DNA of 64,000 nt from an uncultured Clostridia bacterium (GTDB lineage: Bacteria > Bacillota > Clostridia > TANB77 > CAG-508). The DNA lies in assembly GCA_947599825.1 (NCBI GenBank), contig CANQFS010000001.1:20452-84451 (forward strand), given 5' to 3'. Shown here in pieces: positions 62,696-64,000 of the stretch. The first letter of the stretch is position 1, and each line of letters opens with the position of its first letter. The notes beneath the pieces are model-generated. The model worked only from the letters and a program-made list of their open reading frames with translations, did not search any database and was not told the DNA's origin. The translations under genes and the position numbers were made by a program.

Positions 62696-64000
62696 TAGCT
62701 GTGACAAAGCAATAATATACATAGCATGCGACCAACCTAAGCCAATTACCCAGTTAGATTGCATGGTTTCATTGTCTATTTGTTCTGCAAGAAAGCCATG
62801 TTTAGTTGCTGTTTTGCTAATAAATTCAATTTGGTTTGTGGCTTCTTCTTGTTTTCCTATTTTCATATTATATAATGCCAACCATAATGTTGCAATTGGC
62901 CATGGATTATTTCCGCCTAAATAGCTATCATTTTCAAATCTTAAATAGCCACCGGTATAAGTTCTTAAAGTCATATTTATTTTTTCAATAGTATTTTTTA
63001 CTTCTCTTTGCTCTGCATCTAACATAGAAAATGGTACTACAGTTCCTAATAAACTAATATCCATAATGTTATCCTTGTTGTTTCTCTTTAGAGTTTTACT
63101 TTGCTCATCATAGAAATTTTTCAAGCAATAATCTTTTATTTGCTTTGCTTTTTCTTCTAATTCTTCTATTTCTTTTGTTTCGTTTAATTCCTGTTTTATG
63201 GCTATCATTGCCTTTAGCGCTGCATATATTGCACTTAATGAATATAAATGAACTCCTTCATGCATTTCCCATAAGTCATAACTTTCCTTTTCTGTCATAG
63301 GTTCTTTTTCTAATGTACCAAAAGGGACAGATTTACCAAAAGGAAACGTCCCCAATGGTAACCCTAATGGTACTTTTTGGCACATTGGATAGACTTGTTT
63401 TAGAAATTCTTTGTCTTTGGTTATTTTGTAATGTTCGTATATGCCATATATAATGCTGGCTGTTTCATCTATTTGATAGCCCCAACATGGTGCTAATCTT
63501 CCGTCTGTGTAGAAGCGTTGCTCCCACATTCCGTTTTTGCTTTGTGTTTTTTTGCAGAAGTTTGTATAGAATTTTGTCGTTTGCTCTGTCATGTTTAATA
63601 TGTCTAGTGCTTTTGTTACAAAGACTGCATCTCTTGGCCAACAATATGAATAACGTCCACATTTACTTCGTTCTTCATCTACTTCTATTGCTGCTGATAT
63701 GCCACCAGTTTCGGTATTTGAAAGAAGTGGAAATAGCAAAATACTTCTTACATAGATTTTTTTTATGCTTTCGTATTTTTCGTATGCAATTTTGTCTATT
63801 TCATTTTGTTCTTTTTCTATTGATTTATTTACCGCATCCTTTATTTCATCTTTGCCTGTTAGTTTTCTTTGCCACTCCTCTTTTTTACTTAGAATTTTTA
63901 GTCCGTCATGCTCTTTTACATAGTTATTCCAATATTTTTCTACTTTCTTTTGCTCTTTTGTGGTATCTATGCTTTTTATTTTTTCTACGTCTTCTATTAT
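62672..64000 (-). CDS. Glycoside hydrolase family 15 (glucoamylase-like) protein, 5' end beyond window
   Basis: CWPRDA, YDLWEMHEG, GGYLRFENDSYLGGNPWPIATLW and LGWSHAMYI motifs. The frame stays open upstream of the track Met (63739) to the window end. Confidence 0.85.
   Translation of the reverse strand: MIEDVEKIKSIDTTKEQKKVEKYWNNYVKEHDGLKILSKKEEWQRKLTGKDEIKDAVNKSIEKEQNEIDKIAYEKYESIKKIYVRSILLFPLLSNTETGGISAAIEVDEERSKCGRYSYCWPRDAVFVTKALDILNMTEQTTKFYTNFCKKTQSKNGMWEQRFYTDGRLAPCWGYQIDETASIIYGIYEHYKITKDKEFLKQVYPMCQKVPLGLPLGTFPFGKSVPFGTLEKEPMTEKESYDLWEMHEGVHLYSLSAIYAALKAMIAIKQELNETKEIEELEEKAKQIKDYCLKNFYDEQSKTLKRNNKDNIMDISLLGTVVPFSMLDAEQREVKNTIEKINMTLRTYTGGYLRFENDSYLGGNNPWPIATLWLALYNMKIGKQEEATNQIEFISKTATKHGFLAEQIDNETMQSNWVIGLGWSHAMYIIALSQLGTFGDVS
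63315..63373 (-). repeat. Long-form GGGAC-box element inserted in frame inside the GH15 coding sequence
   Basis: gtaccaaaagggacagatttaccaaaaggaaacgtccccaatggtaaccctaatggtac is translated as ...KVPLGLPLGTFPFGKSVPFGTLE... just upstream of the conserved DLWE region. Confidence 0.85.

Follow-up and report, generated by a model that had tools for sequence, protein, structure and literature searches.

The GH15 locus and its intragenic repeat

The stretch of DNA analysed here (the window) is 64,000 nucleotides (64 kb) long and comes from an uncultured Clostridia bacterium. Close to its right end, on the minus strand, it carries a gene for a glycoside hydrolase of family GH15, presumably a starch-degrading enzyme, and directly downstream of this gene lies an open reading frame (ORF) for a Y1 transposase. 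Inside the GH15 gene, just before the catalytic-acid motif, is a copy of a short palindromic repeat that resembles REP (repetitive extragenic palindromic) repeats of other bacteria. The copy is in frame, is found at the same site in a series of related species, and differs from lineage to lineage in its outer nucleotides. The gene and its element are laid out as follows.

62672..64000, minus strand: GH15-family glycoside hydrolase, C-terminal 442 codons and stop, N-terminus beyond the window (PF00723, TIGR01577, 1lf6)
63284..63391, minus strand: hypervariable linker of 30 aa from the helix ...YPMCQK to SYDLWE (homologue alignment; AlphaFold2 (AF2) coil with predicted local distance difference test (pLDDT) <50)
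63266..63283, minus strand: SYDLWE motif, S463-E468, invariant or nearly so in 40 homologues
63313..63373, plus strand: REP-like element in its long form, inside GH15 (nhmmer 59.8 bits, E 2e-16); minus-strand reading VPLGLPLGTFPFGKSVPFGT
63315-63328, plus strand: unit 1 of the element, GTACCAAAAGGGAC
63329-63332, plus strand: spacer between units 1 and 2, AGAT
63333-63347, plus strand: unit 2, TTACCAAAAGGAAAC
63348-63361, plus strand: unit 3, GTCCCCAATGGTAA
63362-63373, plus strand: extra partial unit, CCCTAATGGTAC

The plus strand of 63315-63373 reads GTACCAAAAGGGAC-AGAT-TTACCAAAAGGAAAC-GTCCCCAATGGTAA-CCCTAATGGTAC, and the profile match covers the whole 50-nt element. The long form, with its additional partial unit, is also found in an extragenic copy at 18289-18350. 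Conceptual translation of 63314-63373 on the minus strand gives VPLGLPLGTFPFGKSVPFGT, a stop-free peptide rich in Gly, Pro, Thr and Phe, and the SYDLWE motif follows after 10 residues. The first-pass annotation, made from the letters of the window, had described a long-form repeat copy within the GH15 ORF, in frame and just N-terminal to DLWE; both points are confirmed. If the segment is translated, trypsin is predicted to release VPLGLPLGTFPFGK and SVPFGTLEK from it. Folded as single-stranded DNA (ssDNA), the intragenic copy reaches -11 kcal/mol (z -3.3), the weakest stem among the copies folded.

The host ORF (62672..>64000) matches PF00723 at E 2e-16. It also matches the TIGR01577 oligosaccharide amylase model (E 3.5e-111, below the equivalog cut-off) and, by sequence, PDB entry 5z3d; the best fold match among solved structures is the bacterial glucoamylase 1lf6 (TMq 0.67). 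The full protein (P0001, 665 aa) is 100% identical on three contigs of separate assemblies, which rules out an assembly artefact. The Glu of SYDLWE (E468) is presumably the GH15 general acid; none of the 40 homologues departs from it or from E629, the other conserved catalytic Glu. Domain and fold matches together with these residues agree with a GH15 catalytic (alpha/alpha)6 domain, and the gene is otherwise intact.

The element forms the first 20 codons of the 30-aa linker. In an AF2 model of the enzyme (mean pLDDT 75.6, predicted template modelling score 0.83) the linker runs from helix 420-431 to the catalytic motif; residues 432-457 are coil and residues 436-464 have pLDDT <50. The earlier description of the segment as loop-like is borne out as far as disorder goes, while its position at the surface is a further step, and from the model we infer that the peptide is exposed there.

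The repeat family

The family consensus is (A)ATG-GTACCAAAAGGGAC-AGAT-GTACCAAAAGGAAAC-GTCCCCAATGGTAC, with a length of about 48 nt. Each element has three units of about 14 nt, the third being the first in inverse form. The 12-nt core GGAAACGTCCCC occurs nine times in the window with at most one mismatch, compared with 0.00 expected from 100 shuffles. A profile built from eight copies finds 10 family copies in the window, nine of which lie between genes or extend over a gene end, in most cases a 3' end. In metagenome loci, an exact-match contig scan followed by a profile filter gave 83 genuine copies. These are mostly extragenic and often form inverted doublets; about 5 of the 83 lie deep inside real genes.

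The window, 80 genome loci and 120 metagenome loci supplied 97 distinct copies on which pairing within the element was assessed. Units 1 and 3 pair in 91-99% of these copies at 8 of the 14 positions, with weak points in a 3x3 internal loop and in the three outermost box positions (59-67%). Unit 2 occupies the loop of this hairpin. A separate hairpin within each 14-nt unit was rejected and the unit 1:unit 3 pairing preferred, because the outer positions of single units pair poorly (0.43-0.55). As ssDNA, family copies fold with z from -3.2 to -6.5. No Rfam family matches the element at gathering thresholds.

The five outer nucleotides of each unit, called the box here, define sub-families (GTACC, GACGC, TTCCC, ACCCC, TAACC, GAACC and others), and box types tend to co-vary across the three units of one copy. 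One extragenic copy of the window, 57393-57441 on the minus strand, has GACGC in all three units. As the window also has GTACC copies, two sub-families coexist in one genome. In the window copies the tag GTAG is absent. CGTC is invariant inside the core AAACGTCCCC, where it lies at the junction of units 2 and 3, and is at most a candidate equivalent of the published end tag.

Two properties of the consensus concern its fate inside genes: it is stop-free in all six frames, and its units are spaced at 18, 15 and 12 nt, all divisible by three. Copies in the window also occur as inverted pairs. The copies at 60187-60236 (minus) and 60250-60299 (plus) are 20 nt apart and 91% complementary, and a second pair is formed by 18044-18090 (minus) and 18289-18338 (plus). 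The copies of the second pair (18044-18338) stand 198 nt apart and enclose a separate palindrome with 74-nt arms (18115-18188/18190-18263, 73% complementary). This arrangement looks like a REPIN (REP doublet forming hairpins) with an unusually long structured spacer.

The same site in orthologous genes

For comparison, 120 GH15 homologues were aligned and 80 orthologous loci, each sampled over about 20 kb, were taken from GTDB species representatives. These are metagenome-assembled genomes (MAGs) of uncultured gut Clostridia from rabbit, human, ruminant and other hosts. The linker between MCxK and SYDLWE varies from 18 to 66 aa across the family. It has 23-33 aa in the sister clade, where it takes the form A.xFLKKY.DYI..., and consists of 21-51 unrelated residues in deeper outgroups. 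Since the 30-aa linker of the window falls within the range of its relatives, the element replaced ancestral sequence with no net gain in length. The clean insertion of about 20 residues expected by the first-pass annotation is thus not what the alignment gives. Against the distant solved GH15 enzyme 5z3d the region has 47 versus 27 residues.

Peptides of the LGTF[PL]..[KS]SVPF type are found at the same linker site in about 17 species whose GH15 proteins are 65-95% identical outside the linker. DNA profile matches in these species have identical position, orientation and frame, and the core TTG GGG ACG TTT is placed identically relative to the MCxK helix in every species that bears it. GH15 genes with the element were also found among the metagenome-scan loci (L083 and L135; L numbers denote individual loci). 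The copy is therefore no peculiarity of one genome. In a neighbour-joining tree made with the linker excluded, the element-bearing GH15 genes form one clade. Because they are monophyletic, a single founding insertion appears likely.

In about 60 loci (about 1.2 Mb) outside this clade, no match was found at the internal linker site and no strong match in the flanks. This agrees with the expectation that orthologues would lack the segment. L039 and L072 have weak profile matches only, beside the GH15 3' end and the Y1 gene. The sole partial match inside an outgroup gene (L039) is at the 3' end of the gene, adjoining the flanking repeat. The first-pass annotation had framed the comparison as one with genomes lacking the repeat family. 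That contrast does not apply, and the idea that the outgroups lack the repeat system was rejected: in them, too, the Y1 gene is present, surrounded by diverged REP variants of their own, and only the present variant and the internal copy are missing. Nor do outgroup GH15 genes contain a linker-site copy of their own variant. On this comparison we regard the neighbourhood GH15-REP-Y1-REP as ancestral and the internal copy as a derived character of one sub-clade.

Turnover of the intragenic copy

The intragenic copies of different species belong to different box types:

GTACC: window, L002, L004; peptide VPLGTFPFG.SV.FGT
GACGC: L006-8, L013, L135; peptide DALGTFLNASSVPFAS
TTCCC/GGGAA: L009-12, L020, L083; peptide FPLGTFPNG...
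GAACCG: L014

In the window clade, L009/L020, L013 and L014, the intragenic box is the same as the extragenic box of the same locus. The intragenic copy of L014 is identical to its own extragenic copy at 43 of 47 positions, compared with at most 37 of 47 for any orthologous intragenic copy. In L013, gene and element disagree: its GH15 is 85-87% identical to those of L009/10/11/20 and only 70-74% identical to those of L006/L008, while its element is 62-72% identical to the former and 91-94% identical to the latter. Element and gene phylogenies are discordant. The GACGC type of L006-8, L013 and L135 is that of the extragenic window copy at 57393-57441.

The copy has also changed in length and completeness. 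The three closest species differ by indels of whole units, with one tandem copy of unit 3 in L004, two in the window and three in L002. The element of L009 and of L083 is a cluster in which partial copies in inverted orientation also occur, and the frame is kept throughout. In L003 and L005 no more than a decayed remnant, L[GE]TFSKETF, is left. The remnant of L003, whose GH15 is 91% identical outside the linker, is the most decayed (TTG GAA ACG TTT TCT AAA GAG ACA TTT). In the 22-kb locus of L003 there is no REP copy, and no Y1 gene is found downstream of GH15; this lineage may have lost the system. Upstream of the element cluster, the GH15 gene of L083 (minus strand, 338-aa ORF) has an open frame of only 81 codons. 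This points to a frameshift or a pseudogene, or to faulty assembly of the metagenome contig.

Within the core TTG GGG ACG TTT rare codons are kept. All 16 species have ACG and all but one have TTG, although only 8% of the Leu codons in the same GH15 genes are TTG, 7% of the Gly codons GGG and 5% of the Thr codons ACG. Conservation of the element is confined to this core and to comparisons within a box type. The element as a conserved island was rejected in its simple form: of 568 windows of the gene, 399 equal or exceed its conservation.

The Y1 transposase gene and its flanking repeats

The ORF downstream of GH15 and the repeats around it are as follows.

61632..62486, minus strand: RAYT-like (REP-associated tyrosine transposase-like) Y1 (HUH) transposase ORF, 284 aa (PF01797, E 2.4e-13; NF047646, 67 bits)
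62664..62696, plus strand: REP copy of the short form, made up of units 2 and 3 and oriented like the intragenic copy (27.8 bits; fold z -4.3)
61672..61721, minus strand: full REP copy, inverted, at the other flank of the Y1 gene (55.1 bits; 96% complementary to 63313-63358; 9 nt upstream of the radA start)

The Y1 domain is of the IS200-like type; the best NCBIfam match of the ORF is NF047646 (REP_Tyr_transpos, E 1.5e-18), and the sequence has an HUH motif, NHAHFII, and a Tyr motif, RYIHKNP. The ORF extends about 150 residues beyond the Y1 domain at the C-terminus, and this tail runs on through a REP copy. REP copies in inverted orientation, 62664-62696 (plus) and 61672-61721 (minus), border the gene, and the intragenic copy is about 650 nt from the Y1 gene and its REP copy. 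The copy at 62664-62696 encodes the final residues of GH15 and its TAA stop (..LGTFGDVS*). In many of the orthologous loci, too, the GH15 stop is adjoined or overlapped by the left repeat of the Y1 gene.

Twenty-four loci have the Y1 gene at this place downstream of GH15; their Y1 identities are 37-88%, and the synteny extends down to about 50% GH15 identity. Inverted, lineage-specific repeats flank it in at least 15 other loci, and the repeats of outgroups share a GGGAC motif. The window, L002, L004, L008 and L014 share one orientation pattern, with two left copies that are direct and a right copy that is inverted. L009-L012 and L020 have the intragenic copy and no adjacent Y1 gene. This conserved synteny with diverging flanking repeats supports vertical descent and co-evolution of the repeats, and the Y1 protein would be the one that mobilises the REP elements, judging from its family and its position.

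Next to the Y1 gene, radA/sms is seemingly split into three overlapping minus-strand ORFs within 60449-61663 (61424..61663, 60678..61382 and 60449..60769). ORF 61424..61663 has the N-terminal, zinc-finger-like part, and the gene was identified by eye from the sequence. The split could come from frameshifts introduced by errors in MAG assembly, or the gene could be a pseudogene.

In-frame copies in other genes

The metagenome contigs were also checked for other intragenic in-frame copies, as had been proposed. Such copies are found in three unrelated intact genes, where they use two frames other than that of GH15:

L157:7139-7184: GH94 cyclic-glucan-synthase-like protein, 2,659 aa; peptide QKGQIPHLETSPMG
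L184:9213-9261: Mfd/TRCF (transcription-repair coupling factor); peptide TQKGQMPHLETSPMG
L186:3183-3227: peptidase U32; peptide TKGTDESKRNVPIA

In L186 the Pfam U32 match is split into two stretches, and this protein has no solved relative by sequence. Alignments of Mfd to solved homologues begin after the element. A peptide search of a big database with the five other element frames joined gave one word-sharing candidate and none that scored, and is uninformative on other hosts.

Origin and persistence of the intragenic copy

We favour, with a probability of roughly 0.7, the explanation that a copy of the REP family was founded once in the GH15 linker and has since been refreshed or replaced as part of the repeat population, its peptide being a passenger. 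REP-type short imperfect palindromes would fold as ssDNA hairpins and be spread by the presumably single-copy RAYT-like Y1 transposase. One copy would have landed in the linker in the common ancestor of a single clade of uncultured gut Clostridia, replacing the end of the barrel helix before the catalytic-acid motif. It could survive there because the linker tolerates nearly any sequence and length, the element has no stops in six frames and its spacings are multiples of three. The inherited copy may then have been overwritten or refreshed by the current REP variant of each lineage, either by re-insertion into or beside the old copy or by short-tract gene conversion. Duplication of units, formation of inverted dimers or clusters, and decay would be its other fates. 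The peptide would be a disordered Gly/Pro/Thr/Phe-rich loop, probably neutral to the enzyme, and both its expression and the replacement route are deduced from the patterns described above.

Several points weigh against this explanation or limit it. Over distant species pairs the mean nucleotide identity of the element (0.73) is no higher than that of the gene (0.75), since the boxes of the element are replaced. The GACGC intragenic copy of L006-L008 and L135 differs from the nearby extragenic copies sampled, and the match of intragenic boxes to those of their own genome draws on few copies (about 20 kb per genome). The neighbour-joining tree that places the element-bearing genes in one clade has no bootstrap. 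The retention of rare codons could reflect either repeated refreshment or selection at the DNA or RNA level, and the data likewise fit both re-insertion and gene conversion as the route of replacement. The confidence of the AF2 model is low precisely in the linker, where a surface loop is deduced from disorder. Translation of the element peptide is predicted from the open frame. The Y1 protein scores 67 bits against an equivalog cut-off of 80 for NF047646, and it is a putative mobiliser of the elements.

The variation of box types by lineage, often in agreement with the genome's own extragenic type, might also mean that there was no founding event at all. The linker would then be a hot spot for separate insertions of lineage-specific REP variants, of which those in frame and stop-free survive. 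The incongruence of element and gene in L013 would fit such recurrent insertion, as would the very different lengths that the linker tolerates, and local hopping is plausible given a distance of only some 650 nt to the Y1 gene and a REP copy. Yet orientation, frame and the position of the core relative to the MCxK helix are identical in every species, and the genes that bear the element are monophyletic. GACGC is common to L006-8, L135 and L013, which are not sisters, even where it is unlike nearby extragenic copies, which fits inheritance; and outgroups with the same GH15-REP-Y1 neighbourhood never gained an internal copy. We therefore consider repeated independent insertion rather unlikely. 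That the segment is native GH15 sequence with a chance likeness to the repeat, that the family derives from the gene, or that the locus is a pseudogene or a mis-assembly is far less credible still. The outgroup linker does have an LGT tripeptide at about the same place. But the match extends over the whole 50-nt element at 59.8 bits (E 2e-16), sister and outgroup GH15 genes lack the element, and the dispersed family flanks Y1 even in outgroups with no internal GH15 copy. The identical protein on three independent contigs, the intact ORF and the invariant catalytic motifs speak against an artefact.

Selection on the DNA or RNA itself deserves separate consideration. The copy might be a functional cis-element, such as a site bound or cleaved by Y1, a boundary of a unit made up of the 3' half of GH15 and Y1, or an mRNA hairpin, shortly ahead of the catalytic segment, that modulates translation or folding. 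Rare codons of the core are kept even between species with differences at some 40% of third codon positions, the boxes track the REP variant of the lineage as though recognition were preserved, and orientation relative to the Y1-flanking copies is conserved (window, L002, L004, L008 and L014). Such a role seems improbable, however, as L003 and L005 keep an intact GH15 with a mere decayed remnant, L009-L012 and L020 have the copy with no adjacent Y1 gene, and the intragenic hairpin is the weakest of those folded. The copies in Mfd, GH94 and U32, being in other frames, argue for tolerance and not for a GH15-specific role; the passages on other intragenic REPs in PMC3733652 reach the same conclusion of tolerance. 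We are equally doubtful that the copy is a maintained working member of the REP/RAYT system, that is, a cis site recognisable by Y1 which serves as a second left end of a unit of the GH15 3' half and Y1, or as a structured mRNA or ssDNA signal shortly ahead of the catalytic segment. If it were, a coding linker would for a long evolutionary time have had a second role in transposase recognition or regulation.

Relation to known repeat systems

The element is a short imperfect palindrome with a stem-loop, and its many dispersed copies are chiefly extragenic and near gene 3' ends, as in REPs. The inverted repeats that flank the transposase gene and the inverted doublets are features of REPINs. 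The first-pass annotation held that in-frame insertions of palindromic elements are rare beyond Rickettsia. This view needs correction, as PMC3733652 describes intragenic REPs in several species and Delihas (PMC3184786) gives further cases. In the sections of Di Nocera et al. 2013 (PMC3733652) on such copies, intragenic REPs encode 20-30 aa or more, over half are dimers or clusters, and many of the genes that bear them are replication or repair genes; to those authors, insertion into unrelated proteins argues against functional constraint. The GTAG/CGTC-tagged REPs described there are, like the family reported here, mainly extragenic, located at gene 3' ends, in frame in a minority of cases and often arranged in dimers or clusters. 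They are likewise tied to tyrosine transposase genes flanked by REPs (REPtrons), and DNA-repair genes are frequent among their hosts, to which the Mfd copy found here corresponds. The Clostridia family differs from them in sequence, in phylum and in its three-unit architecture with a variable box. As far as the searched text of PMC3733652 extends, a further difference is that one intragenic site is followed here across about 17 species with evidence of replacement.

REPIN-RAYT systems are described in PMC3116915 (Bertels & Rainey 2011), PMC5581495 (Bertels et al. 2017) and bioRxiv 10.1101/2021.07.10.451892. RAYTs are single-copy, vertically inherited and co-evolve with REPINs (PMC5581495; bioRxiv 10.1101/2021.07.10.451892), and Group 1 RAYTs have been reported in Clostridia (PMC5581495). 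The present locus resembles these systems in its Y1 gene with inverted flanking repeats, its dispersed inverted doublets, the conserved, apparently vertical synteny of GH15 and Y1 and the apparent lineage-specific co-evolution of the repeats. It differs in that the Y1 protein falls below the NCBIfam cut-off for RAYTs and has about 150 extra C-terminal residues, and the classic systems are found in Proteobacteria. The three papers describe extragenic REPINs, with no discussion of translated copies.

The in-frame palindromic elements of Rickettsia (Rickettsia palindromic elements, RPEs; Ogata et al. 2000, as summarised in PMC3733652 and PMC3184786) are about 105-146 bp long (PMC3184786). Like the present element, they are palindromic repeats that lie in frame in still-functional genes and are tolerated as an extra peptide segment. 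Unlike it, RPEs are longer, presumably unrelated in sequence, and belong to obligate intracellular Alphaproteobacteria, and the description of them in these summaries includes no adjacent transposase. By this comparison the Clostridia element (about 48-60 nt) is not a member of the RPE families and is an analogue at most, residence in frame being the sole shared property. BRE of Bordetella, RUP/SPRITE of pneumococcus and enterobacterial miniature inverted-repeat transposable elements (MITEs) also include repeats with open frames that extend gene ends or sit inside genes (PMC3184786), as a copy supplies the GH15 stop here. They differ in being MITE-like with terminal inverted repeats or terminator-like, and in belonging to other families and hosts (PMC3184786).

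Taken on its sequence features, the case would fit the published REP/REPIN-RAYT class, and it is not a new kind of system. New here are the clade of hosts, an element of three units whose box varies, and one copy, predicted to be translated, that is traced at an orthologous site through box replacement, dimerisation and decay beside a RAYT-like gene. In-frame insertions of REPs or MITEs are one way in which bacterial proteins gain new loops, and as a rule they are reported as single snapshots. The series of about 17 species indicates that a translated copy can persist for long and yet join the turnover and co-evolution of the repeat population. It offers a natural series for studying how REP populations homogenise and how much foreign, DNA-constrained sequence a linker near an active site can absorb. 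Little-studied gut Clostridia are thereby added to the hosts of REP/RAYT-type systems with translated copies. For annotators, Gly/Pro/Thr/Phe-rich segments of this type in MAG proteins are repeat-derived.

Other features of the window

The window has three Rfam matches at the gathering threshold: 6S RNA at 44531-44721 (minus strand, 96.9 bits) and two tRNAs at 35144-35218 and 35252-35322 (minus strand). A long tandem array with a 24/48-nt period and about 19 registers occupies 24214-24837 inside the minus-strand ORF 23755..24831, and presumably is a coding repeat of 8 or 16 residues. A weaker relative of this array is found at 50470-50580 within ORF 47771..50743. Positions 13275-13669 and 15628-16023 form a duplication of about 400 nt that is 85-91% identical, with the two parts 2.35 kb apart. 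At 530-727, a 33-nt unit is repeated five times in tandem, giving a period of 11 codons.

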